From: Escherichia phage KEP4
DNA length: 64,000 nucleotides
Reading direction: 5' to 3' (one strand)
Sequence record: PP047754
Shown here: positions 4,905-61,562 of the stretch, piece by piece
How positions within the stretch are numbered: position 1 is the first letter of the stretch
Layout: each line of letters begins with the position of its first letter
The notes under the pieces: generated by a model
Seen by the model: the letters and a program-made list of their open reading frames with translations, nothing else
What the model was told of the DNA's origin: nothing
Database searches by the model: none
Program-made: the position numbers and the translations under genes

Positions 4905-4909
4905 AACTA

Positions 4910-4946
4910 AATACCCCTAGATGACATGAATACATTTAGGGGTATT
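4910..4946 (+). promoter_or_regulatory. hairpin fused to late-promoter box (CTAAATACCCC at 4907-4917); 10-bp stem aataccccta/taggggtatt
   Basis: perfect inverted repeat 4910-4919 / 4937-4946; right-arm GGGG lies 8 nt before ATG 4951. Confidence 0.6.
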
Positions 4947-8124: not shown

Positions 8125-8137
8125 TATTGAATGCCTA

Positions 8138-8171
8138 AATACCCCATATTGGTCATCCTTTATGGGGTATT
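8138..8171 (+). promoter_or_regulatory. hairpin fused to late-promoter box (CTAAATA 8135-8141); 11-bp stem aataccccata/tatggggtatt
   Basis: perfect inverted repeat 8138-8148 / 8161-8171; GGGG 7 nt before ATG 8175; near-identical copy at 10726-10765. Confidence 0.65.
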
Positions 8172-10715: not shown

Positions 10716-10730
10716 ATTGAATTGAGCCTA

Positions 10731-10765
10731 AATACCCCATATTGGCAAATCCTTTATGGGGTATT
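10731..10765 (+). promoter_or_regulatory. hairpin fused to late-promoter box (CTAAATA 10728-10734); copy of the 8138 element
   Basis: inverted repeat 10731-10741 / 10755-10765; the in-frame ATG at 10756 lies inside the right arm. Confidence 0.65.
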
Positions 10766-15915: not shown

Positions 15916-15922
15916 CTAAATA
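15916..15922 (+). promoter_or_regulatory. late-promoter-like box CTAAATA (also TATAAAAT at 15926-15933)
   Basis: about 35 nt upstream of ATG 15956. Confidence 0.4.
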
Positions 15923-22431: not shown

Positions 22432-22456
22432 CTAAATACCTTCAAAATTGAGGGTA
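22432..22456 (+). promoter_or_regulatory. late-promoter box CTAAATA plus hairpin (taccttc/gagggta) whose 3' arm GAGGG is the SD of the next gene
   Basis: same architecture as the tailspike-upstream elements; 7-bp stem with one G-U pair. Confidence 0.5.
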
Positions 22457-26681: not shown

Positions 26682-26688
26682 CTAAATA
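26682..26688 (+). promoter_or_regulatory. late-promoter-like box CTAAATA upstream of the sheath gene
   Basis: immediately after TerL stop; about 40 nt before ATG 26731. Confidence 0.4.
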
Positions 26689-32681: not shown

Positions 32682-32688
32682 CTAAATA
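32682..32688 (+). promoter_or_regulatory. late-promoter-like box CTAAATA
   Basis: 29 nt upstream of scaffold ATG 32717. Confidence 0.4.
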
Positions 32689-37227: not shown

Positions 37228-37545
37228 ATGGCTTGTAAAACACCAGAAATGAAATTAGTTGTTTCGTCAAAGGGGCGTCGCAGCCGCAGTCGAAATCTCA
37301 TCACCCGTTTAGATATTCTACGTCAAAAATATCAAGGTCACAGCGTGTTCACACGCATCCGTAACGCATTAAAGGAAGGGCGAATCGAGTTGGAGCTATA
37401 TCGTCCAAACGGTTCGACTCGTGCGTATCAGACCACCGACGGTTTGCTGGAACTGATCCGCCTCTCGGGAATGAGCATAGAACCTCGTTCATCAGGGACT
37501 CCCTTGTGCAGCCTGTATGTAATCGGCAATCTTGGGGCGCTGTGA
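37228..37545 (+). CDS. hypothetical basic protein (105 aa)
   Basis: AGAGGA SD; Arg-rich N-terminus (KGRRSRSRNLITR). Confidence 0.5.
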   Translation: MACKTPEMKLVVSSKGRRSRSRNLITRLDILRQKYQGHSVFTRIRNALKEGRIELELYRPNGSTRAYQTTDGLLELIRLSGMSIEPRSSGTPLCSLYVIGNLGAL

Positions 37546-37550
37546 GTTCT

Positions 37551-37973
37551 ATGAAGAAGTATATCGTTCTTATAACGGGTTCCCGTTCTATAACTGAGCG
37601 GGATAAAATCTTCGCCAAACTGGATGAACTGTTAGATCCCCACGAGATCGAAACTTTTATAGAAGGTGAAGCGGTTGGTGTGGACTTGATATCTCGTGAT
37701 TGGTGTGAAATCAATTATGTTCATGTTACACCAATGGAGATCCCTAAGAATTATCACACGATATATGGGAAAGGCGCAGGAAACCAACGTAACAAAGATA
37801 TGTTAGACAAAGCTACAACCCTGGCCAAACAAAAAGGTCTTGAGGTCTTTGGAATTGCATTATGGGATGGTTCGTCTACTGGGACGCAAGACATGATTAC
37901 CCGCATGAAAAAAGCAGGTGTCAATGTCAATATCACTCTCATGGGCAAACCCAAAACCAAACGATTGTTATAA
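37551..37973 (+). CDS. SLOG-type (DprA/LOG-like, DUF2493-like) Rossmann-fold protein, tentative
   Basis: KKYIVLITGSRS...EGEAVGVDLISRDWC pattern; 140 aa; track start 37506 is GTG. Confidence 0.4.
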   Translation: MKKYIVLITGSRSITERDKIFAKLDELLDPHEIETFIEGEAVGVDLISRDWCEINYVHVTPMEIPKNYHTIYGKGAGNQRNKDMLDKATTLAKQKGLEVFGIALWDGSSTGTQDMITRMKKAGVNVNITLMGKPKTKRLL

Positions 37974-38007
37974 ATATGTTTGCCTTCACACCCATATGGA
38001 GTTAGCT

Positions 38008-38178
38008 ATGCTGCAATTAATTTTGATTCTTTGTGTCGCTTTTACCATGTACTTTCTGGCGCGAATCAGTTATATCACACTAAATGATCTGAAAGATACA
38101 CCACGCGAACCTAAATTTATATTTCTAAAGAAATACACCAAAAAGTTCTGCGAGAATTTTATCTATCATCTTCCGTGA
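38008..38178 (+). CDS. small membrane protein (56 aa, one TM helix)
   Basis: GGAG SD 6 nt before ATG 38008; LQLILILCVAFTMYFLARISYI hydrophobic segment. Confidence 0.4.
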   Translation: MLQLILILCVAFTMYFLARISYITLNDLKDTPREPKFIFLKKYTKKFCENFIYHLP

Positions 38179-38179
38179 T

Positions 38180-38207
38180 TATAAATACCCCCAAAATTGG
38201 GGGTATT
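38180..38207 (+). promoter_or_regulatory. exact T4-type late promoter TATAAATA (38180-38187) fused to hairpin aataccccc-aaaatt-gggggtatt
   Basis: 9-bp perfect stem 38184-38192 / 38199-38207; GGGGG 6 nt before ATG 38210. Confidence 0.65.
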
Positions 38208-38209
38208 TT

Positions 38210-38938
38210 ATGAACGCACAAATCTACGATGTCCTTTCCTCTGGTAATGCATTTAGCAACCCGCTTCCGTCCCTCTCCGGTCCCTCACAGGATTTAATCA
38301 CCAGTGGTAGTACCAATATACCATTGATAACTGCCAACGCGACTCCGGAGATGCAGGCGGCTATGGTTGCTGGTGGACTAACACCAGAAAAACTCACAGC
38401 AGCCACCACCATGTATAGCGCCGCCAACACGGGGATAACGACACTGAACACATATGGAGACCAAAGTATCAATGACGCGTATTCTCGCATCGGTACTTCC
38501 GTGTCATACAAATCAGGTCTGAAGGGTATATCACGAGAGCCAAACAATTGTGATTTGATCAACAAGGCTTTTGGTGTTGTTCAGGATTTAGGACGCCAAT
38601 GGCTGAATGCTATGGAAGGTGCTCTACAGACCGTAACAAACAAGATATCGGAATTGTATGACATGATTATGGAAGGTGCCTCAGAAGGGATGGCAAAACT
38701 ACAGCAATTGGCTGCTGAAGTAACAGGACATATCAATGAGGCAATAACCGCCGTCAATGGAGTTATAAACGATATCACCGATGGGATAGCTGCAGAACTT
38801 GCTCATATTGAAAGTATGATCAAAGAATGTCTAAACTTCTCTTTTGCGAATGTTCTTGGAGAATGGGCTAAAGATCTCTGTGCTGGAGGCGTTATTGATA
38901 AAATAGGGACTCCAGAATTAAAAGAGTCCCTGAAATAA
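38210..38938 (+). CDS. hypothetical late protein (242 aa), likely virion-associated
   Basis: driven by late-promoter/hairpin element; Ala/Thr-rich N-terminus, alpha-helical C-terminus. Confidence 0.55.
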   Translation: MNAQIYDVLSSGNAFSNPLPSLSGPSQDLITSGSTNIPLITANATPEMQAAMVAGGLTPEKLTAATTMYSAANTGITTLNTYGDQSINDAYSRIGTSVSYKSGLKGISREPNNCDLINKAFGVVQDLGRQWLNAMEGALQTVTNKISELYDMIMEGASEGMAKLQQLAAEVTGHINEAITAVNGVINDITDGIAAELAHIESMIKECLNFSFANVLGEWAKDLCAGGVIDKIGTPELKESLK

Positions 38939-39592
38939 TCAATGTCTAGCGGGGAGAACTCCCACTGGTTCGATACCTTCCATCACCAGGGAGTTCACCC
39001 CAACATCACTCATTCGAATCCATACTTTACCGCCTGGTCTTATTTCATAGATGTTCATTTCATTACCCACAGCAGATCCATTAACGAAAACACCCTGAGT
39101 GGCAATTCGGATCGGAGATTTGGTGTTATTAACTATCTGAAATGATATTGCAACGTCTCTGGTGATTTCTACGTCCCTTGCTTGAGTATTCCTTCTGAGT
39201 TTGTCAAAGAAAGAAGGGTTGAAAGTCGCTATGATGCTATTATTCTGAGAGTAATAAATACTTGCGGATAGATATGGGATCTTTCCTTCGTCACCTTTCC
39301 TCAATAGGGGAATCGTGGTTTTCCAGTATGGTCTCAGTGACTGGTTGTTATCATCAAAACAACCAACAGCTTGAAGAGTCTGGAAGTTCTGAAAATCAGA
39401 TACTACTTGATTCAGAATATTTTTATTGCATTTATCAATGTCGGCTGAGATGTTAACAGGTATGGTTCTGATTTCAGGATCCCAGAGGTCGGTTACAGAA
39501 ATGACGGACGTGACAAAGATACGGCAACTTGTGAGTGCAAGCACCATTATCATCGTCATGATCCATTTTCTGAATCCGCGTATCAGGAACAC
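38939..39592 (-). CDS. putative lipoprotein on the opposite strand (217 aa from GTG 39592; 206 aa from ATG 39559)
   Basis: GTG 39592 with GGAG 9 nt upstream; n-region RGFRKW, h-region IMTMIMVLALTS, lipobox LTSC; abuts the stop of ORF 38210. Confidence 0.5.
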   Translation of the reverse strand: MFLIRGFRKWIMTMIMVLALTSCRIFVTSVISVTDLWDPEIRTIPVNISADIDKCNKNILNQVVSDFQNFQTLQAVGCFDDNNQSLRPYWKTTIPLLRKGDEGKIPYLSASIYYSQNNSIIATFNPSFFDKLRRNTQARDVEITRDVAISFQIVNNTKSPIRIATQGVFVNGSAVGNEMNIYEIRPGGKVWIRMSDVGVNSLVMEGIEPVGVLPARH

Positions 39593-39622
39593 TAAAACGT
39601 TCTCCACAGCAAAGGTGCTAAC

Positions 39623-40117
39623 ATGACAGGTGTACAATTCAAAAACGAAAATCCTAATTTCGCGGCTTCCGATAAATGGCGCTTAACTATCGGAGACCTA
39701 ATATTGCTTACTCGTTCAATACATGACTTCAGTATTCCTGGAGTGTATTCTGAAGGTATCGAGGGACCATCCCCTGGCGATGTGCTCAACTCCATACCTT
39801 CAGAACGTCTCACGTATGACCCCATCGTATTTACGTTCGTTATCGATGAGAGTTGGTACAACTGGGAACAGATTTACAATTGGATTGCGTCCAATGCTGG
39901 ATCTGATTTAGCTGTTAGCCGTGACATCACCATCGACCTTCTTGATAACATGAATCGACCTGTTGGTCTACAATTGTTGTTGGAAGAAGCCCGTCCCACA
40001 GCTTTGGACAACGTATTGGTGGATGTGGATGCTGCGGTTCCCCAACTGGTCACGACTGTCACGTTCAAATATTTGAAACTGACTCCGACTCGCGTCACCC
40101 GCGAAATTGATAAATAA
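39623..40117 (+). CDS. hypothetical protein (164 aa)
   Basis: ORF only. Confidence 0.5.
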   Translation: MTGVQFKNENPNFAASDKWRLTIGDLILLTRSIHDFSIPGVYSEGIEGPSPGDVLNSIPSERLTYDPIVFTFVIDESWYNWEQIYNWIASNAGSDLAVSRDITIDLLDNMNRPVGLQLLLEEARPTALDNVLVDVDAAVPQLVTTVTFKYLKLTPTRVTREIDK

Positions 40118-40614: not shown

Positions 40615-41360
40615 TGGTTTCTCTACAGGCTTTGCGCAAACTTAATGACTTTGAAAATCGTCATCATACATTTCAGCAATATTCCTTGCCGTTTAAGGAA
40701 CTGACTTGCGTAACTACCGAAAATGGTCGTCACTATGTTTCCCCCACTGGAGTCAAACTAACTTCAGTGACGACCATGTTAGGGCGTACTGGTGACCACA
40801 CATGGTTAGAAGCCTGGCGGGACAAGTTGGGGCATGAAGCTGCTGATATAGAAACACATCGTTGCGCAGACCGTGGGGAAAAACTTCATTTGGCTTGTGA
40901 GTTGTATCTCAAAAACAGACCAATGAAGGAAGTTCTGGAAGCTGCAGGGGAATACGTGTTTATGTTCAAACAGGTTTTCCCCTACCTTAACAAAATGAGC
41001 AAGATATATGCACAAGAGATTCCATTATATAGCGAAGTCCTGGGTCTTGCTGGTCGTGTTGACCTCATCGGGGTTTACGAAGGAATTCCAAGCATAATCG
41101 ATTTCAAAACATCTAACACCCTAAAAACTCGAAGCATGATAGAAGATTATAGTATTCAATTGTGTCTATACTCAGTCATGTTTCAACAAATGTTTAATGT
41201 CAAGATAGAGCGTTTAATCAATATTATATCCAACGAAAATGCCCTTGTTCCCACCATAATCGAATTCGATCGCAAAGACGTTATTTCTAAAATGTTTGAC
41301 CGTGTCCGTCTGTATCACAAAATGGACAAAGAACAGAAAGGAATCTGGGCGGATCGCTAA
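40614..41360 (+). CDS. PD-(D/E)XK-family nuclease (Cas4/RecB-like fold), tentative
   Basis: GRVDLIGVYEGIPSIIDFKTS fits the D...(I/V)DxK motif; TAATG overlap with the upstream gene. Confidence 0.45.
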   Translation: MVSLQALRKLNDFENRHHTFQQYSLPFKELTCVTTENGRHYVSPTGVKLTSVTTMLGRTGDHTWLEAWRDKLGHEAADIETHRCADRGEKLHLACELYLKNRPMKEVLEAAGEYVFMFKQVFPYLNKMSKIYAQEIPLYSEVLGLAGRVDLIGVYEGIPSIIDFKTSNTLKTRSMIEDYSIQLCLYSVMFQQMFNVKIERLINIISNENALVPTIIEFDRKDVISKMFDRVRLYHKMDKEQKGIWADR

Positions 41361-41363
41361 ATA
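41357..41363 (+). promoter_or_regulatory. late-promoter-like box CTAAATA overlapping the upstream stop codon
   Basis: 27 nt upstream of uvsW ATG 41390; GGGGG 9 nt before the ATG. Confidence 0.35.
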
Positions 41364-42894: not shown

Positions 42895-43260
42895 TCAAAT
42901 ATCTTGATTCACATAGGCGGGGGTTGCCTCGCCTTCTTTGTTGGAACCAAATAAACAGTCGATCGTGCCAATACATTGTTGTAGCACTTTCGGCTCAAGA
43001 ATCTGAGAAAACAATTCTTCATTAGATGCCAGCAGTGGAACAACTTTCACTTCCCGCGCCTGGCCTTGTTGAATAATGCCAACATACAGACCTTTGTTAT
43101 TTGGGAGTAATGGTATCACCAACATCGGTGACACAATAAACCCCGATGTACAGAAAAGGCTTTGTAAATAAACGCCTTTTAATGACGAACGTTGTTCTGA
43201 TATGGAAAGAATTGCTTCTTGGTCTTCCCCTACTGCGTATAAACCAACAAATTGCTTCAT
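42895..43260 (-). CDS. hypothetical protein (121 aa), convergent with uvsW
   Basis: minus-strand ORF with ATG at 43260; no motif recognised. Confidence 0.45.
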   Translation of the reverse strand: MKQFVGLYAVGEDQEAILSISEQRSSLKGVYLQSLFCTSGFIVSPMLVIPLLPNNKGLYVGIIQQGQAREVKVVPLLASNEELFSQILEPKVLQQCIGTIDCLFGSNKEGEATPAYVNQDI

Positions 43261-50562: not shown

Positions 50563-50600
50563 TTGATTTTGACCACAAATTCGTAATAAGGAACAATGAA

Positions 50601-50972
50601 ATGTTTGATCAAGCAACCCGTTTAAAACTGCGTTTCAACTCTAACAAAGGTCTGCTATCTGTTGAGCAGGTTTGGGATCTGAATCTGAACGCACTGAACG
50701 AGCTGGCGAAAGATCTGAGCCGTCAGGTGAAAGAAGCAGCCAGCGATGAAGAAGACTTCATCGGTGTGAAAAGCGCGGTCGATTCTCAGTTACAACTGCG
50801 GTTCGATATCGTGAAAGCGATCATCGGTGTTAAACTGAAAGAACGCGATGAAAGCGCGACCGCAGCAGAGCGTAAAGCGAACAACCAGGCGATCATGGAA
50901 CTGATCCAGCGTAAGAAACAACAGGAACTGGAAGGTCTGTCTGTTGAAGAACTGGAAAAACTCCTGAAATAA
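50601..50972 (+). CDS. hypothetical helical protein (123 aa)
   Basis: AAGGA SD; predicted coiled-coil C-terminus. Confidence 0.5.
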   Translation: MFDQATRLKLRFNSNKGLLSVEQVWDLNLNALNELAKDLSRQVKEAASDEEDFIGVKSAVDSQLQLRFDIVKAIIGVKLKERDESATAAERKANNQAIMELIQRKKQQELEGLSVEELEKLLK

Positions 50973-50992
50973 TCTGACGGCTCCGGCCTGAG

Positions 50993-51020
50993 AAACCCCG
51001 CCGTGTGCGGGGTTTCTTTT
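50993..51020 (+). terminator. rho-independent terminator (aaaccccgc-cgtgt-gcggggttt + CTTTT)
   Basis: 9-bp stem plus U-tract closing the 47207-50972 unit. Confidence 0.85.
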
Positions 51021-51031
51021 GGACAAAAATC

Positions 51032-51442
51032 ATGAAATCTATTACGTGTGATTACTGCGGTCAACCTGCCCAATACGTCGGGTGTGATGTTGTATACCCC
51101 CACCGCCCCGACCTCCGCAATCTGAAGTTCTGGGTATGCTCGCCATGCGACGCTCGTGTGGGTTGCCATACCCATGGGGATGGTAGACAACCTCTGGGAA
51201 GGATGGCGAATGCCGCTCTCCGTGCTGCTAAGCAGGAAGCTCATAGATCGTTTGACCCTATCTGGAAAGGTGGGCAGAGGAGCAGGAGTGATGCTTACAG
51301 CTGGCTGGCTCATAATCTGGGGATCAAGAAGCGCGATTGCCATATCGGCTTGTTCGATATCGATATGTGCCGTAAAGTAGTCGCTGTGTGTAATCAACTA
51401 AAGGCACAAGATAATGTCAAAGGAAATACAAGAAGCATTTGA
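51032..51442 (+). CDS. zinc-ribbon protein (136 aa)
   Basis: CDYCG...C(x)VGC and CSPCDARVGCH Cys clusters; ATG 51032 (track start 51005 is GTG inside the terminator). Confidence 0.5.
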   Translation: MKSITCDYCGQPAQYVGCDVVYPHRPDLRNLKFWVCSPCDARVGCHTHGDGRQPLGRMANAALRAAKQEAHRSFDPIWKGGQRSRSDAYSWLAHNLGIKKRDCHIGLFDIDMCRKVVAVCNQLKAQDNVKGNTRSI

Positions 51443-51665
51443 AAATTTATCTCAGGTAATGACCGACTGTAACCGCCGGAATTATTGTGATGAAGCGTAT
51501 ACCAAATTGAAAACTACTGTTGAAACCGAGCTGGCAGGTCTTTCCGTTTTCAAAGATATTCAGACCGAAGCGCTATATCTGTCGGATGAAGATTTAAGGC
51601 GTTGCCCCCGCAAGATTTACCAATTACTGGATCGTTTGGTGAAAGTGGGGGTGAATAATGGGTAA
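51414..51665 (+). CDS. hypothetical protein (83 aa)
   Basis: AAGG SD 9 nt upstream. Confidence 0.45.
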   Translation: MSKEIQEAFENLSQVMTDCNRRNYCDEAYTKLKTTVETELAGLSVFKDIQTEALYLSDEDLRRCPRKIYQLLDRLVKVGVNNG

Positions 51666-52383
51666 TCGTGAAGGGATTAAACTCACACCAGAACTTCTGA
51701 AGTCACATATTGCTGAAGTGATTTATGAAGACCGTGAAGTTGGTGGTCACCGCGTCATTACATGCCATTTCAAGATGGACAATGGGTTCGTTGTGTGGGG
51801 TAAGAATAGTTCCACATCGGTAGACCCTGCCAACTTCGATGAAGAAATGGGCAAGCAGCTGGCCTATGAAAAGACCTTTTCTCAACTGTGGGAACTGGAA
51901 GCATATCGCGCGATGGTAGAAAAGCAGATCATCGATGTGTCTGCCGAAGATGCTAAGATCAACATTGATGAATATGTGTCAGAAAGGGAAGCGATACATG
52001 AGATGGGTGGTTCTGAATTTCTTAAGGGTAAAGGACAATCCATCGTGTTTCGTCATCCCAAAGATCCAAGTCGGGGATTTCGCGTTGAATTTGTTCGCAC
52101 CGATAATGAACGTTATAACGAACGACGCAATGGTGAGGCACGATCTTTGGTGGAAGCGTATCTTCGCTCGTTCATGACTTCTGAAGAACTAAATTCTGAA
52201 CTTGTCTTGCGTTTGGCGAAAACGTGTAATGCTGCTTCAGGGGATTATCCGTGGTGTGACCTGTCAGAAGACAAACGCCAAGCAGCCTGTGATCGTGTTA
52301 AGAAATTCTTGTTAGATCCGAAAGCCCAACCTGGTGATTCCGTAGGGGCACTGTATAGAGCCATTGTGGTGTCCTACTTGTAA
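51658..52383 (+). CDS. phage protein with N-terminal N4 gp49 / Sf6 gp66-like domain, tentative
   Basis: HRVITCHFKMDNGFVVWGKNSSTSVDPANFDEEMGKQLAYEKTFSQLWELEAY fits the family pattern as I recall it. Confidence 0.45.
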   Translation: MGNREGIKLTPELLKSHIAEVIYEDREVGGHRVITCHFKMDNGFVVWGKNSSTSVDPANFDEEMGKQLAYEKTFSQLWELEAYRAMVEKQIIDVSAEDAKINIDEYVSEREAIHEMGGSEFLKGKGQSIVFRHPKDPSRGFRVEFVRTDNERYNERRNGEARSLVEAYLRSFMTSEELNSELVLRLAKTCNAASGDYPWCDLSEDKRQAACDRVKKFLLDPKAQPGDSVGALYRAIVVSYL

Positions 52384-52650
52384 TTCTTCAAAAGTCTTTC
52401 AAAATCAATAACGTCCGGCAAAATGCTGGGCGTTTCAATTAATAAGCCAAGGTATAATGGCCCAACTGAAAACGCGGGGGAATTTCTTTGTCCAAGCCAT
52501 TCATTCGTTCCGGAGTTGATTCTCTAGACTCCCAATTTAAGCCGAGCGAAGTTTTAATCCAACAAATTGAAACCAATCGTGAATTCATAGAACACATGTT
52601 GGCAAAGCCGGAAGGTGAAGCCGCTCAAACCACCAAAGAAGGTAATAACG

Positions 52651-54867
52651 ATGATTGAATCATTAACATTTAAAAATGCGGTAGCAACCGTCGCGCCGTC
52701 TAACCATGTAATCGTTGTGGATATCTCCGGTTCCATGTACCGTTCACTTCCTGAAGTTCGCAAGCATCTGAAGGAAAATCTCCCGTCTCTGGTTAAACCA
52801 GAAGATACCGTCAGCATTCTTTACTTTTCATCCCGTGGTGATTTCGGTACGGTATTCGCTGGCCGTCAGATCAATAGCGCGACCGATCTCAGTGAAATCA
52901 ATAAACTGATTGACCGCTTCCTGCAACCGTCCGGTTGTACGGGATTTGTAGAACCTCTGAAGTTGGCTGCTGAAACCGCGTTGAGCCTGAACAAACCTGG
53001 TTATGTCAATAACCTGGCGTTCATGACCGACGGCTATGACAACTGCTGGCGCTCTAATGAAATTCTGGCAGCAGCTGAAGTACTGCCCAAGGCGTTCGAT
53101 AATATTACATTCATCGAATATGGCTGGTATTGTAACCGCGAACTTCTGGCTCTGATGTCCGAGCGTTCTGGCGCGACTCACGTGTTTGCCGAAGGTCAGA
53201 CTGAATATCAGACCGAACTGGAAAACGTACTGAAATCATCTACGCCGAAAGTGGTTGTTGATGTTCCCCTGGTTTACACTCATGCCATCTACGTTGAAAA
53301 CGGCGTGGCAACTGTGCTAGCCGTACAACCCGATGAAGAACACCCGATTGGCCACGTCAGCATCCCTGAAAGCGTTTCTCAGCTGTGGGTTGTAAACCCT
53401 AACATGATCGACCAGCTGGATAATCTGGCAGACACCCAGGCGGCATACGTGCTGGCATTCTATGGCGTGTACACCATGGACGCCGATCTGGTCTGGGCCG
53501 CGCTGAAGAAGACGGGTGACGTCCGCTTCATCAAACAATACAGCAACTGTTTCACCAAGCAGGACTATTCCAACATCAAAGTCGATCTGACCCAGGCTAT
53601 CGTGGATGAAACTCTACGCGGCGTAGATGGCATCGATTACAATATGGTTCCAGCTGAAGATGCAACGACCATTGTTGATGTCTTGACCTACCTGGCCGAA
53701 GCCGATGTCTCTGTTGTCACTAAGCATCCATTGTTCTCTTACAACAGCATCGGTCGCGGCACTGTGCAGAAAGTTGATGACACTGAAGACAAGCTGGCTG
53801 AACAAATCGCCGAAGCCAAAACCAAAGCAGAGCGTAAAGCGCTGGCTCTCAAACTGGCTGAGCACGAAGATTGGACACCGGAATTTACTCCGGTTGATGA
53901 CAAAGGGATTGTCCCAATTAGCAATCTGGTCTACAATTCAGAGCGCCCTAACATCAGCATTCAGACCGTTCAGCATGGGACGGTTGTTGTGCCGGAGTTC
54001 GTACAGAAGAAATATGAACTCCCTGAAGAACTGGGAACCTGGCGTTATCGTAATTACACCATCGTCAAAGATGGAATCATCAACCTGAAGACGATGCCGA
54101 TTACTGCCGAATCTCCGATTGTCCGAGCTAAGGTTGTCCAAGATTTGATCGCCATGGGCGTTAATGTATTTGGTGGACCGGAAATCTTCATCGTTAATTT
54201 AGAAAGCGTTCCGATGGTCAACCGCGCCATGACCAAGAACATCAGTGCTGCCGAATTCTTCGCTGACAACGTTCGTCGCGAAGCGCTGAAGGCAAAACAG
54301 AAAGTTCTGAAATTCTATCGTGATGAACTGGTTGGCAAAGGCAATGCAACTGGTCTGGCTTCTAAATATGGTAAAGAAGCCGCCGATTTCTTGTCGGCAA
54401 ATGGCATTCGCGACTACGGGTTCTCGCCGAAAACTACTTCTGTGGAATCAACCGATGTCTACATGAGCCGTGAGCTGAATGTGAAAATCAAAGGTGCTTC
54501 GTCGCTGCCGAGCATTGCGTCAGTTATCAAAAAGCAAGCAGATGGTAAAAAACTGAATGTCGCTGATCAGTTGATTGCCAATGCTTTGGCCGAATACGAC
54601 GCTTTTGTTAAATCGCCAATGATCACCAGCGTACCTGAAGAGACTCAGAAAAAGCTGATTGAAAGCTGGATCGGGGACGCAGCAAAAGCGGCCATTAACG
54701 AAGTCCGCGCCCTGAACAAAACTCTGTCTAAAGTAGTTTACGGCATCGTCGCTGGTCATGGTTGGTTCACTGATTTGGATCTGGAAGAGTCTACGATGGA
54801 TGTAGAAGTTGATGGGGTGAAATACACCGTCACTGCCGAACTGGCCGAAAAAGAAATCAAAATCTAA
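52651..54867 (+). CDS. von Willebrand factor A (vWA) domain protein, 738 aa
   Basis: N-terminal MIDAS-type motif VVDISGSM with downstream TDGYDN; track start 52615 is GTG; 267-bp untranslated region upstream. Confidence 0.65.
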   Translation: MIESLTFKNAVATVAPSNHVIVVDISGSMYRSLPEVRKHLKENLPSLVKPEDTVSILYFSSRGDFGTVFAGRQINSATDLSEINKLIDRFLQPSGCTGFVEPLKLAAETALSLNKPGYVNNLAFMTDGYDNCWRSNEILAAAEVLPKAFDNITFIEYGWYCNRELLALMSERSGATHVFAEGQTEYQTELENVLKSSTPKVVVDVPLVYTHAIYVENGVATVLAVQPDEEHPIGHVSIPESVSQLWVVNPNMIDQLDNLADTQAAYVLAFYGVYTMDADLVWAALKKTGDVRFIKQYSNCFTKQDYSNIKVDLTQAIVDETLRGVDGIDYNMVPAEDATTIVDVLTYLAEADVSVVTKHPLFSYNSIGRGTVQKVDDTEDKLAEQIAEAKTKAERKALALKLAEHEDWTPEFTPVDDKGIVPISNLVYNSERPNISIQTVQHGTVVVPEFVQKKYELPEELGTWRYRNYTIVKDGIINLKTMPITAESPIVRAKVVQDLIAMGVNVFGGPEIFIVNLESVPMVNRAMTKNISAAEFFADNVRREALKAKQKVLKFYRDELVGKGNATGLASKYGKEAADFLSANGIRDYGFSPKTTSVESTDVYMSRELNVKIKGASSLPSIASVIKKQADGKKLNVADQLIANALAEYDAFVKSPMITSVPEETQKKLIESWIGDAAKAAINEVRALNKTLSKVVYGIVAGHGWFTDLDLEESTMDVEVDGVKYTVTAELAEKEIKI

Positions 54868-54875
54868 ATCTAATT

Positions 54876-54899
54876 GGCGGGGAAACCCGCCTTTACTTT
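54876..54899 (+). terminator. terminator-like hairpin (ggcggg-gaaa-cccgcc + TTTACTTT)
   Basis: 6-bp GC stem after the vWA gene. Confidence 0.55.
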
Positions 54900-54911
54900 C
54901 AGGAAATGAAT

Positions 54912-55223
54912 ATGAGCAACAAACCGACTTATGTTGATGTCATGCGCGATTTGGCCCAATACGCATGTGACAACCTGAACATGGAAACTTGGCGCGACGG
55001 CGATCATAAAGAAAAGTTCGATAATATCGACGACAACATCGATGCGTTGGCTCCTCTTCGGGCCAAGAGCGATCTCGGCGGTGATGATCTTGACATGATT
55101 GAACTCATCATGGAAGTTGAAGAACAATATGATGTTGAAATCAGTGATGACTGGGTAGGCAAACATGGTGATGATCCCACGCTCGGCGAATTAGCTGAAT
55201 TGGTAGTTGCCCTCAGCAAGTAA
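54912..55223 (+). CDS. acyl carrier protein-like protein with Asp at the phosphopantetheine-attachment position
   Basis: SDLGGDDLDMIELIMEVEEQYDVEI aligns with ACP helix II ([24 protein letters not shown]) but has D where the conserved Ser lies (codon 55086-55088 gat). Confidence 0.6.
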   Translation: MSNKPTYVDVMRDLAQYACDNLNMETWRDGDHKEKFDNIDDNIDALAPLRAKSDLGGDDLDMIELIMEVEEQYDVEISDDWVGKHGDDPTLGELAELVVALSK

Positions 55224-55231
55224 ACCAAAAG

Positions 55232-55259
55232 AATCCCCAATATTTATTGGGGATTTTTA
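55232..55259 (+). terminator. rho-independent terminator (aatcccca-atatttat-tggggatt + TTTAC)
   Basis: 8-bp stem plus U-tract. Confidence 0.7.
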
Positions 55260-55343
55260 CTTTTAGGGGTTTACTTCTTCTAAAGAATATCCTATTATTC
55301 AATAACTGGCTAACGTGGGGTTGGCTAGAAAAGGAGATACAAA

Positions 55344-55583
55344 ATGAAACTACCAGGTCATATTGAAGTTTATATGCGGTTATACAAAGAAGGTAACGCC
55401 GCTGCTAAAGAACTACACGAACTGATTTTGTCATACGGCGTTAAGTCTGTTACAGAAGTAAAGAACAACAAAATAGACGGCGAATATGTGTCAATCAATG
55501 GGCGTGGTCTGAAAACCAACCCAACATATTTTGTGGGTGTCCATTTAGACACAGGGAAAGAAGTCGTGGAGATCGTGGCATAA
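55344..55583 (+). CDS. hypothetical protein (79 aa)
   Basis: AAGGAG SD 7 nt upstream. Confidence 0.5.
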   Translation: MKLPGHIEVYMRLYKEGNAAAKELHELILSYGVKSVTEVKNNKIDGEYVSINGRGLKTNPTYFVGVHLDTGKEVVEIVA

Positions 55584-55822
55584 TGTCTAATAAGAAAGTT
55601 GAAACGACGGTAGAAATTGATCGTAATTGGGGATTACTCCGCGCTAAAGGTTTTCGTCGTGTTTATATGACCAAGGAAGTTTATGTTCAGCGTCGCGACG
55701 TTATTATCAGCAAGAAAGGTAAAGAGTGGGTTGCTGAAGAAGTTGACATTGAAACAGGTGTCGTGGGCAAAGTAAAAGCGAAGGCGGCTATTTTGTTTTC
55801 TCTTCTGAAGCATATCAATTAA
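55583..55822 (+). CDS. hypothetical basic protein (79 aa)
   Basis: TAATG overlap with upstream gene. Confidence 0.5.
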   Translation: MSNKKVETTVEIDRNWGLLRAKGFRRVYMTKEVYVQRRDVIISKKGKEWVAEEVDIETGVVGKVKAKAAILFSLLKHIN

Positions 55823-55835
55823 TTCTATAAACTCC

Positions 55836-55863
55836 GGCGGGGTATGATTACCCCGCCTATTTG
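55836..55863 (+). terminator. terminator-like hairpin (ggcggggta-tgat-taccccgcc + TATTTG)
   Basis: 9-bp stem. Confidence 0.6.
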
Positions 55864-55906
55864 AAATTGCAGGAACTTATATCATGATCTCTGTCGAGGG
55901 TATAAT

Positions 55907-56194
55907 ATGACAAAGGAACAAGAACTCGCTTTGTTCTCTATGGTTCGCAGTAATGTTAAATTGAGTTTTAGACAAGTGGACTCCATTATTGATCTTATGA
56001 AAATTAAGAATTCCATAGATAACGATCATTTGCGCACCGCTCTTTTGGGATTGTTGGAATTCGTTTTGCGCGGATCTGATCTTGGACCAGTGAATGATAT
56101 TGACGACCTGACCAAATTGTTAAACACTGGCGGTGATGGTTTCGATACCGCTCGTATTCTGATTAACTGTGGTCCTAACAAAGAAGAGGTATGA
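55907..56194 (+). CDS. hypothetical protein (95 aa)
   Basis: GAGGG SD 6 nt upstream. Confidence 0.5.
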   Translation: MTKEQELALFSMVRSNVKLSFRQVDSIIDLMKIKNSIDNDHLRTALLGLLEFVLRGSDLGPVNDIDDLTKLLNTGGDGFDTARILINCGPNKEEV

Positions 56195-56195
56195 T

Positions 56196-56354
56196 GTGGA
56201 CAAAGATTTGGTTTGGGAAATCGTGAAAGGTATCCTGGTAATAATTGCTGTGGTCTTTATCCTAGGAGGAAACTTCTTCTATTGGTTATTGCGGTATGAA
56301 GAGAAGCGTCGAGAGCGGAAAGAACAGAAGAGAAAAGATCGATGGATGAACTAA
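56196..56354 (+). CDS. small single-TM membrane protein (52 aa), tentative
   Basis: GTG start with GAGG SD; ILVIIAVVFILGGNFFYWLL then KRRERKEQKRK tail. Confidence 0.3.
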   Translation: MDKDLVWEIVKGILVIIAVVFILGGNFFYWLLRYEEKRRERKEQKRKDRWMN

Positions 56355-56386
56355 CTAAGGGATAACCCTATATCCCGAGGTGTGTC

Positions 56387-56836
56387 ATGTTTCTTACATC
56401 CTTTATTGACTGGATGAATATCATAAATGGCCTGAGGATTCCTGTTGGGAATCTTGGGCTTTCTCGTTCTTCTATGCCGCAAATCGATACCGACAAACAA
56501 GAAGATTTTCACAAATATCTTGAAGACAACGGCGTGTCCATAGATGCTGCGCAAGTGCCCATCAAAATGCTTCGTCTTACCCAGAACGAAATCAATAAAA
56601 TGAAGGTCTGGAAGATCATGAAGCAAATCAGAAATAAGAAACCTATGGGTAGAGTTTGGGTGTCTTCTGACAATTACGTTGTTGACGGTTCTCACCGATT
56701 TGTCGCTGCGTTGAACATGGATGGTAAACAGCGCATGAAGGTCTACAAAGTTGATTTGCCTGCGATGGAATTCGTAAAACTCGCCAAACAATTTCATGGT
56801 GTGCGGTACAGAACGGTCAGCGATACCCGTTTCTGA
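56387..56836 (+). CDS. ParB-like nuclease domain protein, tentative
   Basis: VVDGSHRFVAA matches the ParB/sulfiredoxin-type DGxHR motif; GAGG SD. Confidence 0.45.
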   Translation: MFLTSFIDWMNIINGLRIPVGNLGLSRSSMPQIDTDKQEDFHKYLEDNGVSIDAAQVPIKMLRLTQNEINKMKVWKIMKQIRNKKPMGRVWVSSDNYVVDGSHRFVAALNMDGKQRMKVYKVDLPAMEFVKLAKQFHGVRYRTVSDTRF

Positions 56837-56915
56837 ATACGATAGTTTATTGAAACCCTTTACTCAACATGGTGAGTCGACTATCATTTTATCCAATGAA
56901 ATAAGGAGAATCACC

Positions 56916-57605
56916 ATGAAACGTTTAATCCTCGGGGTTGTGCTGGCAGGTCTGGCATTACCCGCCGCCGCCAAGCTGAACTCCACAGGTGACAAACTGT
57001 GGTCTGATCTTTCCTACTGTGCTGGGTTCTCCCAGGCGGTCGCTATCGACAAGTCCGGTTCCATAGAGAATTTCGCTGAACTTTGGAACACGGGTAACGT
57101 CTCCACTGCTGTTGTTAATGCTGGGATTGAGTTCAACCGTTACAAACAGGGAGCCTACAACTTGAAAGGCTACCTGAATGACGATGAATTTAACCGAGGA
57201 GGCATGGAGGCTGGCGATCTCATCATGACTGGCCGTATGGGCACACAAGGCCGTATGACTGTAAGGCAATGCCGTTCTCTCCCCTCTCCGGCATTACAGA
57301 AGGGTGTGCAAATCGGGCGTCGACATTTGGATCTGATCAATGATGGCAACCAATGCATCAAGGTGTTTGAATATAGTGCCGACCAAGAATCAGATCGACG
57401 TTTGAAAAAGGAATGGCGGACACGTGCCCTTGGATTGAGAGCATGGCTCGTAGAAAACGATTATTACTACGAGGATCGTGTTCAGAACGGATTGAAAGAT
57501 CTTTCTACTAATTTGTCTGTCAATCTAGACGACCCAAGGCTTTCGCGTGAACTCAAGCAAACACGGATTGACTGCGACAATATGATGAAGGAGAACGAAA
57601 GATGA
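56916..57605 (+). CDS. exported protein with signal peptide (229 aa)
   Basis: AAGGAG SD; MKRLILGVVLAGLALPAAAK signal peptide; track start 56796 overlaps the upstream gene. Confidence 0.55.
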   Translation: MKRLILGVVLAGLALPAAAKLNSTGDKLWSDLSYCAGFSQAVAIDKSGSIENFAELWNTGNVSTAVVNAGIEFNRYKQGAYNLKGYLNDDEFNRGGMEAGDLIMTGRMGTQGRMTVRQCRSLPSPALQKGVQIGRRHLDLINDGNQCIKVFEYSADQESDRRLKKEWRTRALGLRAWLVENDYYYEDRVQNGLKDLSTNLSVNLDDPRLSRELKQTRIDCDNMMKENER

Positions 57606-60565: not shown

Positions 60566-60771
60566 TCGGATTAATTCGTTACCTGTTCATATTCGTAATT
60601 TCAACATTCATTTTATTTTTCTTTTTCAAATACTTGAAAGAGACTAAAATCTACCGAAGTAAACGTTGGCGCAAACGGGTGAGGGTAACTTTCCTGCTGC
60701 TGATTTCTTCGGTTACAATAACCGCACTCACATTGGGTGCATATATCTACATTTTTGAAGGGGTACATTGA
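60562..60771 (+). CDS. small membrane protein with two TM helices (69 aa); holin-like topology
   Basis: two hydrophobic segments separated by KETKIYRSKRWRKRVR; ATGA overlap. Confidence 0.45.
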   Translation: MIGLIRYLFIFVISTFILFFFFKYLKETKIYRSKRWRKRVRVTFLLLISSVTITALTLGAYIYIFEGVH

Positions 60772-61562
60772 TGTTCAAGAAATTGGTGTTCGGTGCAATT
60801 ATGGTTCTGGCTGCAAGTCTACTTTCTGGTTGTGGCGGCGTTATCGATGAAGGTAATGTCGGCGTTCGCACCCAATGGGGTGAAGTAGACATGAACCCTG
60901 TAACAGCGGGGATCTACACCAGCTTTGTTTCAAGCGTGGATGTTTACACGACCAAAGAAGCCGTTGTGAGTCTGACTAAAATGACGCCAAAGGCCAAAGA
61001 CAACCTGACTCTGGAAGACTTGGATGTGGATGTTTATTACACACCCAATGTCGCAAAGGTTCCGTGGTTCCATACCAAATTTGCTGGCCAGAGCGCCGAA
61101 CTCGATGATGGCACGATAGCGGTGGGTTTCAATCTAGTTAAAACTGCTGCAGCATCTTCTTCGATGGACGCCGTTTCTTCTCTTGATTCTATGACAATTC
61201 ACACCCAACGTGCTGAATTAGAGAAGATGATTAAAGACCGCACTCAGCAACAATTAGAGACTGCTGCGCCTGGCATGTTCACAATCACACGCGTGTTGGT
61301 CAAAAAGGCGCTGACGGATCCTTCTATTGAGCAGTCTATCCGTGATAATGTTATGGCGGACAAACGATTGGATACGGCAAGAAAGAACGTTGAAATTCGC
61401 GAGCAAGAAGCCCAAGCGAACCAGAAACTGACCACTTCGCTGACGCCTGAATATCTTCAACATGAATATAACATGGTATTACAATCATGTGCCAATAGTG
61501 GAAAATGTACTCTGATCGTTGACGGATCCGGCTCAGGTAAAATGCTGAACGTCGGCAAATAA
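60771..61562 (+). CDS. lipoprotein with SPFH/band-7-like domain, tentative
   Basis: signal plus lipobox MVLAASLLSGC; GNVGVRTQWGEV resembles the SPFH domain start; GAAGGGG SD. Confidence 0.5.
   Translation: MFKKLVFGAIMVLAASLLSGCGGVIDEGNVGVRTQWGEVDMNPVTAGIYTSFVSSVDVYTTKEAVVSLTKMTPKAKDNLTLEDLDVDVYYTPNVAKVPWFHTKFAGQSAELDDGTIAVGFNLVKTAAASSSMDAVSSLDSMTIHTQRAELEKMIKDRTQQQLETAAPGMFTITRVLVKKALTDPSIEQSIRDNVMADKRLDTARKNVEIREQEAQANQKLTTSLTPEYLQHEYNMVLQSCANSGKCTLIVDGSGSGKMLNVGK

Follow-up and report, generated by a model that had tools for sequence, protein, structure and literature searches.

In the 64,000-nucleotide stretch of the Escherichia phage KEP4 genome analysed here (sequence record PP047754; hereafter the window), an open reading frame (ORF) on the minus strand, at 38939–39592, lies within a block of plus-strand genes. 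Almost certainly, this ORF is a working gene in a Kuttervirus (family Ackermannviridae) and codes for the precursor of a bacterial-type lipoprotein of the family DUF7424; with the same near-certainty it belongs to the core genes of the phage family, kept in inverted orientation between two late genes for virion proteins. The lipoprotein may change the envelope of the infected cell; its most likely role, which we propose tentatively, is superinfection exclusion or the blocking of a receptor or of entry, similar to that of T5 Llp or Cor.

The DUF7424 gene and its lipoprotein signal

The reading frame is intact from a GTG (39592–39590) to a TGA (38941–38939) and encodes 217 residues, as read directly from the sequence. 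The first-pass annotation of this DNA had placed a lipoprotein gene here with a GTG start, a GGAG Shine-Dalgarno site and an LTSC lipobox, all of which are present in the sequence; the coordinates given for its ORF stand, and the length of about 210 residues has to be corrected to 217. We conclude that it is no chance ORF, because it has Pfam and PHROG matches, 53 homologous clusters at 90% identity, a low ratio of nonsynonymous to synonymous substitution rates (dN/dS), a conserved start and Shine-Dalgarno site, and a lipoprotein signal that is rare in the window.

Two other start calls can be made for the same frame, a TTG at 39637, which gives the longest listed ORF (232 residues), and an ATG at 39553 (204 residues), which is used in some GenBank records. 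The start at 39592 is favoured over both because the GTG and the GTGGAGA before it are conserved in the homologue alignment. They are kept in phage Maynard, Klebsiella phage 0507-KN2-1 (Taipeivirus) and Dickeya phage RC-2014 (Limestonevirus), and also in E. coli phage ZQ1 (Aglimvirinae) and one Serratia 3M-like phage. Moreover, the annotators of Maynard picked the equivalent GTG and marked a ribosome-binding site at the equivalent place.

The product matches Pfam DUF7424 (PF24199) over positions 2–195 of the 196 in the profile, with E 1.1e-60 and 205.2 bits against a cut-off of 27, and phrog_3832 with E 3e-113. All 36 distant relatives tested also match DUF7424. A profile search of 1.84 billion representatives gave 87 relatives at E<=1e-3, nearly all of them 190–230 residues long and matched from end to end. 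GenBank records call the orthologue a 'putative lipoprotein' in phages kage (kage_37), STP55, LPST94, bering, pertopsoe and others, and a 'conserved hypothetical lipoprotein' in Maynard (Maynard_69), and identity to the annotated Kuttervirus orthologues is 89–99.5%. The gene is thus already catalogued, in GenBank annotations and as a Pfam family, without an assigned function. Further searches added no relationship to this. A Pfam scan at E<=0.1 returned DUF7424 alone, a PDB sequence search and NCBIfam gave no match, and the defence hidden Markov models of PADLOC (E<=0.1) matched neither the window protein nor three bacterial or prophage homologues. A fold search of BFVD returned DUF7424 members only, with no known fold or family among the matches.

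The N-terminus reads MFLIRGFRKWIMTMIMVLALTS and then, beyond the predicted cleavage point, CRIF. Its n-region, MFLIRGFRKW, carries R5, R8 and K9 and is followed by an uncharged hydrophobic core, IMTMIMVLA. With the lipobox defined as [LVI][ASTVI][GAS]C and the cysteine at +1, L20-T21-S22-C23 agrees with the pattern. A lipobox is found in 212 of the 229 collected family sequences, and most of the remaining ones are N-terminally truncated gene calls; a few relatives carry LNSC, which falls outside the strict PROSITE pattern. The signal is no background feature of this DNA, because in a six-frame scan of the whole window only two ORFs of more than 100 residues have one (38939–39592 and 60768–61562). 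The second of these, on the plus strand, encodes a further phage lipoprotein of 264 residues, beginning MMFKKLVFGAIMVLAASLLSGC, with an SPFH/band-7 domain.

In enterobacteria, a +2 residue other than Asp directs a lipoprotein to the outer membrane. Arg occupies the +2 position in each of the 49 clusters of full-length Ackermannviridae sequences, and Lys does so in most bacterial homologues; there is no Asp at this position of the lipoprotein, that is, no Lol-avoidance signal, which predicts sorting to the outer membrane.

Conservation within the family was followed in alignments that include A2 (36 members, down to 15% identity) and A4 (75 sequences). Cys23, Cys55 and Cys78 are the only invariant columns of A2, in which Asn155 (in an NDT motif) and Ser195 (in an LSDV motif) are nearly invariant. 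In A4, Cys23, Cys78 and Asn155 are invariant and Cys55 is conserved in at least 90% of sequences. As judged from these alignments, the residues invariant throughout the family are the lipid-anchor cysteine, Cys78 and Asn155 only, with Cys55 invariant or nearly so, and lipoprotein character appears as the most deeply conserved feature of DUF7424. Because two extra conserved cysteines occur in an exported protein, a disulfide between Cys55 and Cys78 is suggested. Across A2 and A4, conservation extends to no acidic or basic residue and to no histidine. Since no residue of catalytic type is conserved, the protein would most likely bind something rather than act as an enzyme.

The mature lipoprotein is computed to have 195 residues, a mass of 21.9 kDa and an isoelectric point of 7.9. 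The second AlphaFold model, a confident one (predicted local distance difference test score 84.6, predicted template-modelling score 0.80), shows an alpha/beta sandwich and then a beta-rich domain. The C-terminus, which ends in GIEPVGVLPARH, is not hydrophobic, and there is no C-terminal transmembrane segment.

Retention in the phage family and homologues outside it

The 2.6 kb around the gene are 99.8% identical to Salmonella phages Se-H, Se-I, Se-J and Se-N, and 99.3–99.7% identical to SE14, SFP10 and others; Se-H/I/J/N, SE14 and SFP10 belong to Kuttervirus (Ackermannviridae, ViI-like). A tblastn search of 50,697 phage records found the gene in 348; in 345 of these the match extends over 80% or more of the protein. 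The hosts of these phages are Salmonella, Vibrio, Klebsiella, Escherichia, Dickeya, Serratia, Shigella, Erwinia, Enterobacter and Aeromonas, and the genomes are mostly of about 145–168 kb. When the locus was compared in related phages, as the first-pass annotation had proposed, the ORF was neither absent nor degraded.

We opened the locus in Maynard, Klebsiella 0507-KN2-1, Dickeya RC-2014, E. coli ZQ1, Serratia-like viral contigs, Aeromonas phage phiA8-29 (Tedavirus), Vibrio phage D506, phage Sajous1 and a metagenomic T4-like contig. In every one of these relatives the lipoprotein gene is opposite to the surrounding strand and head-to-head with a gp3-like gene. The gap to the converging DUF7217 gene, which is 0 nt in the window, is kept at 0–1 nt in Maynard and in the Klebsiella, Dickeya and ZQ1 phages.

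Against Maynard, dN/dS is 0.042 for the lipoprotein gene and 0.015–0.038 for its neighbours, a value that indicates strong purifying selection. The G+C content of the gene is 41.7%, compared with 44.5 +/- 3.1% for 654-nt windows (20th percentile), and its third-position G+C content (GC3) is 42%, compared with 41–46% in the neighbours. At larger distances the lipoprotein diverges more than the products around it: identity is 35% against the Serratia-like phage (neighbours 46–74%), 26% against the Aeromonas phage (34–46%) and 22% against the Vibrio phage (39–44%). On these comparisons the gene is less conserved than its neighbours at genus-to-family distances, yet it is intact throughout.

Because the gene is present in 348 records, in the same slot and orientation, with ordinary G+C content and under strong purifying selection, it is, as far as sequence comparison tells, an old core gene of the family. 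The first-pass annotation had suggested an acquired moron, and this does not hold. Such a reading can draw on the position of a single opposite-strand gene inside a plus-strand block and on homologues that act as cargo in temperate prophages. However, recent acquisition by this phage is scarcely credible when the gene is found, with its synteny kept, throughout the family at 22–99% identity, its G+C content and GC3 are typical of the genome, and its divergence runs roughly in step with that of its neighbours. We regard recent acquisition as refuted by the family-wide synteny and retention. An ancient acquisition by the ancestor of the family may still have taken place.

Distant homologues are found in other settings. 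In P2/HP1-like prophages of Haemophilus, Gallibacterium and Rodentibacter, the DUF7424 gene directly follows, on the same strand, a cI-type repressor gene with helix-turn-helix and Peptidase_S24 domains, and it has 4-nt overlaps with its neighbours at two of the loci (L005 and L016). The slot before tail gene D is variable in these prophages, where BRCT/WYL, Excalibur-domain (calcium-binding) and other unknown ORFs come and go from one genus to another. We take DUF7424 to be cargo there, because the homologue query P0197 matched no P2/HP1-type phage among sequenced phage records. One further copy lies in an integrase/resolvase island, and another lies beside BrnTA and an integrase remnant. In addition, Alcaligenes, Photorhabdus and one Enterobacteriaceae strain carry lone chromosomal homologues with no phage genes within 10 kb.

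Genes co-transcribed with a repressor typically have lysogenic-conversion or exclusion functions. The repressor-operon and mobile-element contexts of the distant homologues give indirect support to an exclusion role, which had also been suggested at first pass and is the best available hypothesis. From the lower conservation of the gene relative to its neighbours at genus-to-family distances we infer that this comparison, too, would favour exclusion.

Neighbouring genes and expression signals

The features of the locus, together with the prophage operons, are collected in Table 1. Read along the plus strand, the gene order is prohead protease, scaffold, major head protein, several small genes, an SLOG or 'GTP-binding' protein and DUF7217, which is on the plus strand. 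Beyond the minus-strand lipoprotein gene follow the gp3-like tail completion gene (plus strand), UvsY, a PD-(D/E)XK exonuclease and a UvsW-like helicase. The stop codons of the lipoprotein gene (TGA) and of the converging gene (TAA) touch without a gap, and the start codons of the lipoprotein gene (GTG) and of the diverging gene (ATG) lie 30 nt apart; both distances had been described correctly at first pass.

Table 1. Features of the lipoprotein locus in the KEP4 window, with repressor-side operons of prophage homologues
Feature	Position	Strand	Basis
T4-type late-promoter-like TATAAATA then hairpin, 23 nt before DUF7217 start	38180..38187	+	motif search
DUF7217 virion protein gene, converging	38210..38938	+	Pfam DUF7217 E 2e-101; Sajous1 gp166 in virions
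Coding sequence, DUF7424 lipoprotein precursor	38939..39592	-	ORF, PF24199, phrog_3832, annotated orthologues, dN/dS
Cys78 codon, predicted disulfide partner of Cys55	39359..39361	-	invariant in alignments A1, A2 and A4
Cys55 codon, predicted disulfide partner of Cys78	39428..39430	-	invariant in A1 and A2; at least 90% in A4
Cys23 codon, predicted lipidated first mature residue	39524..39526	-	invariant column in A1, A2 and A4
Signal peptide, residues 1-22 (R5/R8/K9, hydrophobic core, lipobox L20-T21-S22)	39527..39592	-	translation
Divergent spacer, 30 nt, with ribosome-binding sites of both genes	39593..39622		sequence
Shine-Dalgarno GGAG, 9 nt upstream of GTG	39602..39605	-	read from sequence; kept in relatives
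gp3-like tail completion / sheath stabiliser gene, diverging	39623..40117	+	phrog_45 tail tube family E 3e-33; annotated in relatives; Sajous1 gp168 in virions
Repressor-side cargo operon, Pasteurellaceae P2/HP1-like prophages	L005 9177-10902; L016 9498-10923; L015 10001-11998

Sajous1 gp166, gp167 and gp168 correspond to the DUF7217, lipoprotein and gp3-like genes of the window at 96%, 89.9% and 98% identity. In CsCl-purified virions of Sajous1 analysed by liquid chromatography and tandem mass spectrometry, gp166 and gp168 were detected with 8 spectra each, and gp167 is not among the virion proteins given in Table 6 of that report (PMC10892097). The opposite-strand gene within a plus-strand block, as described at first pass, is borne out; it stands alone between two plus-strand late genes, and both flanking products were found in virions of a close relative. 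The same table is weak negative evidence that the lipoprotein is a non-structural product of a gene set between two virion genes. One could also suppose that it is a virion or assembly protein cooperating with the flanking tail and virion genes, as its fixed slot between two virion genes throughout the family might indicate. This is highly improbable: a signal for Sec and signal peptidase II would export the product from the cytoplasm, the site of tail assembly; the gene is transcribed from the opposite strand; Table 6 has both neighbours in purified virions without the product itself; and homologues are also found in bacteria and within prophage immunity regions.

The same paper (PMC10892097) calls gp214 a 'tail completion protein' at the head of a 'ferrojan horse' operon, gp214–217. 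We considered this 'tail completion / molybdate-binding / ferritin operon' as the present locus and rejected it, the Sajous1 orthologue of the lipoprotein being gp167. The operon argument of the paper concerns another locus. In GenBank record MW021757, gp214 is a hypothetical protein of 795 residues, and it is gp168 that carries the annotation as gp3-like tail completion protein.

Two further observations concern genes nearby. Another lone minus-strand gene, at 42895–43260 (121 residues, phrog_4255), lies between the UvsW-like helicase and sliding clamp genes; in one GenBank record it bears the name 'clamp loader subunit', which looks doubtful. In addition, phrog_289 ('GTP-binding domain', 500 positions) is matched in succession by three plus-strand ORFs within 37506–38938, with profile positions 7–146 in 37506–37973 (SLOG/YspA-like), 133–207 in 37918–38178 (86 residues) and 259–500 in 38210–38938 (DUF7217). 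Either these genes are fused in some phages, or the PHROG was built from merged gene calls.

The lipoprotein gene is on the opposite strand and therefore needs a promoter of its own, for which the only place is within the gp3-like coding sequence on the far side of the spacer. A weak candidate, TTGAAT-16 nt-TAGCAC, starts at 39642. On the other side, the 0-nt gap to the converging gene leaves no room for a terminator. Neither the region before the gp3-like gene at 39623 nor the minus strand around the lipoprotein gene showed a late-type motif. A CTAAAAC that precedes the gp3-like gene was considered as a promoter and rejected, since it is not conserved in relatives. On the simplest reading of the sequence, a late transcript starting at 38180 would cross the lipoprotein gene in antisense and so reach the gp3-like gene, and the lipoprotein gene would be expressed at another time, from a promoter in the 5′ part of the gp3-like coding sequence.

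The motif at 38180 belongs to a series. CTAAATAcc (TATAAATAcc at 38180) recurs on the plus strand 20–45 nt upstream of structural and some replication genes, at 4907–4913, 8135–8141, 10728–10734, 15916–15922, 22432–22438, 26682–26688, 32682–32688, 38180–38187 and 41357–41363. It usually runs straight into a G+C-rich hairpin formed from 'cccc...gggg', which begins inside the motif. CTAAATA occurs 12 times in the window against 7.4 expected, with 11 of the 12 on the plus strand. With its hairpin, CTAAATAcc resembles a late promoter of the T4 type joined to a 5′ stem-loop or terminator.

Around the spacer, an island at about 39530–39685, made up of the spacer flanked on each side by the first ~20 codons of the adjoining gene, is near-identical to Maynard and Sajous1, whereas the rest differs by 14–18%. 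The island may be an overlapping or shared regulatory element, or a patch of recombination (mosaicism).

A possible role at the envelope and comparison with known systems

The steps of export and maturation proposed here combine the signals in the sequence with the standard Gram-negative lipoprotein pathway. Translation would start from the weak GTG behind the GGAG site, the precursor would be exported by Sec, Lgt would lipidate Cys23, LspA would cut after Ser22, and Lnt would N-acylate the new N-terminus. With Arg rather than Asp at +2, the Lol system would move the lipoprotein to the inner leaflet of the outer membrane, where the 195-residue mature domain would face the periplasm, probably stapled by the Cys55–Cys78 disulfide. 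There it may alter the envelope of the infected cell to the benefit of the phage, by binding something rather than by catalysing a reaction. If it excluded superinfection or blocked entry, it would shut out later phages and prevent the loss of progeny on infected cells and debris. As a separate unit on the opposite strand, the gene could follow an expression schedule unlike that of the surrounding late genes, and the late transcript from TATAAATA at 38180, being antisense, could shut it down late in infection. Taken as a whole, with identity, maturation, envelope or exclusion role and regulation together, this is our best explanation, and its chance of being right falls somewhat short of even.

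Several points weigh against an exclusion role. Ackermannviridae attach to O-antigen or capsule by means of their tailspikes; we know of no protein receptor for the family, and the analysis established no outer-membrane protein receptor that such a lipoprotein could block. A sigma-70 scan of the upstream region on the minus strand gave weak or misplaced matches only and no convincing promoter, so the expression of the lipoprotein and its timing are only presumed. A literature search found no paper mentioning DUF7424, no experiment on any protein of that family and no transcriptome of any Ackermannviridae phage. The absence of gp167 from Table 6 of PMC10892097 concerns one virion proteome and is weak negative evidence. 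Moreover, the purifying selection and the retention throughout the family would fit an indispensable housekeeping role equally well, and the lone chromosomal homologues point to what may be a more general envelope function.

The last two points lead to a different explanation, in which the lipoprotein serves general envelope physiology or counter-defence by binding a host envelope component, such as peptidoglycan, a machine of outer-membrane biogenesis or transport, or an envelope-located defence or stress sensor, and keeps the infected cell productive. The fact that no lineage of this strictly virulent family has lost the gene, which is under strong purifying selection, its lone homologues in Alcaligenes, Photorhabdus and the Enterobacteriaceae strain, and the lack of conserved catalytic residues, which fits a binding protein, all agree with it. 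The repressor-operon and mobile-element contexts in Pasteurellaceae, however, are classic for exclusion and conversion genes, and Pfam, PDB-sequence and fold searches showed no similarity to a known envelope-maintenance family. We consider this explanation unlikely.

The best-known outer-membrane lipoproteins encoded by phages are the o-spanins, and the predicted periplasmic location would also suit an accessory of lysis, either o-spanin-like or regulating lysis. Here, however, the globular mature domain of 195 residues is far larger than o-spanins, the neighbours encode virion proteins and include no adjacent or embedded gene for a membrane-anchored partner, the lack of a C-terminal transmembrane segment speaks against a unimolecular spanin, and the prophage homologue lies in the immunity region, outside the lysis cassette. 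A lysis function is accordingly very unlikely. We searched 50600–57000 of the window for spanin genes and recognised none; the spanin reading was rejected on size, partner and context only. Spanins are reportedly annotated elsewhere in the genomes of relatives, according to a table of PMC10892097. Size, neighbours, the export signal, proteomics and the contexts of homologues speak against both a lysis-accessory role and a virion or assembly role.

A bolder form of the exclusion hypothesis holds that DUF7424 is an unrecognised, widespread lipoprotein family of mobile elements, present in virulent Ackermannviridae, P2/HP1-like prophages and genomic islands, which would act in superinfection exclusion or entry blocking through a fold unlike those of Llp, Cor and TraT and which would have become, in Ackermannviridae, a fixed core gene silenced late by antisense read-through out of the adjoining late operon. 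We regard this as doubtful.

If the lipoprotein does block entry, Ackermannviridae would gain their first assigned exclusion function. Phages of this family are widely used in biocontrol cocktails against Salmonella, E. coli O157, Klebsiella and Dickeya, and exclusion between members of a cocktail would bear on cocktail design. The binding partner could then point to the secondary receptor, or the route of entry, that is still poorly defined for these tailspike phages, and a function would be gained for a Pfam family that is also found in Pasteurellaceae prophages and in beta- and gamma-proteobacterial chromosomes. If the function differs, the result is a well-annotated conserved hypothetical lipoprotein only. 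The DUF7424 gene is, more modestly, a tidy and testable candidate in an applied phage family, and not a surprising kind of object.

Known systems resemble the exclusion role that we favour in different respects. Homology to the characterised exclusion lipoproteins, T5 Llp, Cor and TraT, was not found by sequence or fold. Llp of T5, reportedly described in 1994 by Decker et al. and by Braun et al. (the latter cited in PMC9409062), is said to be an early lipoprotein that inactivates the FhuA receptor. Like the DUF7424 gene, llp is conserved in relatives, is separately transcribed and adjoins late structural genes, and we propose it as the working analogy. The two differ in size, about 60 residues for mature Llp against 195, and have no sequence or fold similarity; moreover, the target of Llp, FhuA, is T5's own receptor, and we know of no protein receptor for Ackermannviridae. 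Cor of phi80, N15 and T1-like phages and TraT of F-like plasmids are outer-membrane lipoproteins by which mobile elements exert surface or superinfection exclusion. TraT is similar in size to the DUF7424 lipoprotein, and the Pfam scan at E<=0.1 detected no homology to either. The o-spanins, of the lambda Rz1 type, are likewise outer-membrane lipoproteins encoded by phages, from which the DUF7424 product differs in being larger and globular, without an i-spanin partner and outside a lysis cassette. Finally, old, tin and fun of P2 are lysogenic-conversion and exclusion cargo of P2-like prophages, and distant DUF7424 members occupy the corresponding repressor-operon slot in Haemophilus, Gallibacterium and Rodentibacter; the Kuttervirus phage, in contrast, is virulent, and its DUF7424 copy is a fixed core gene.

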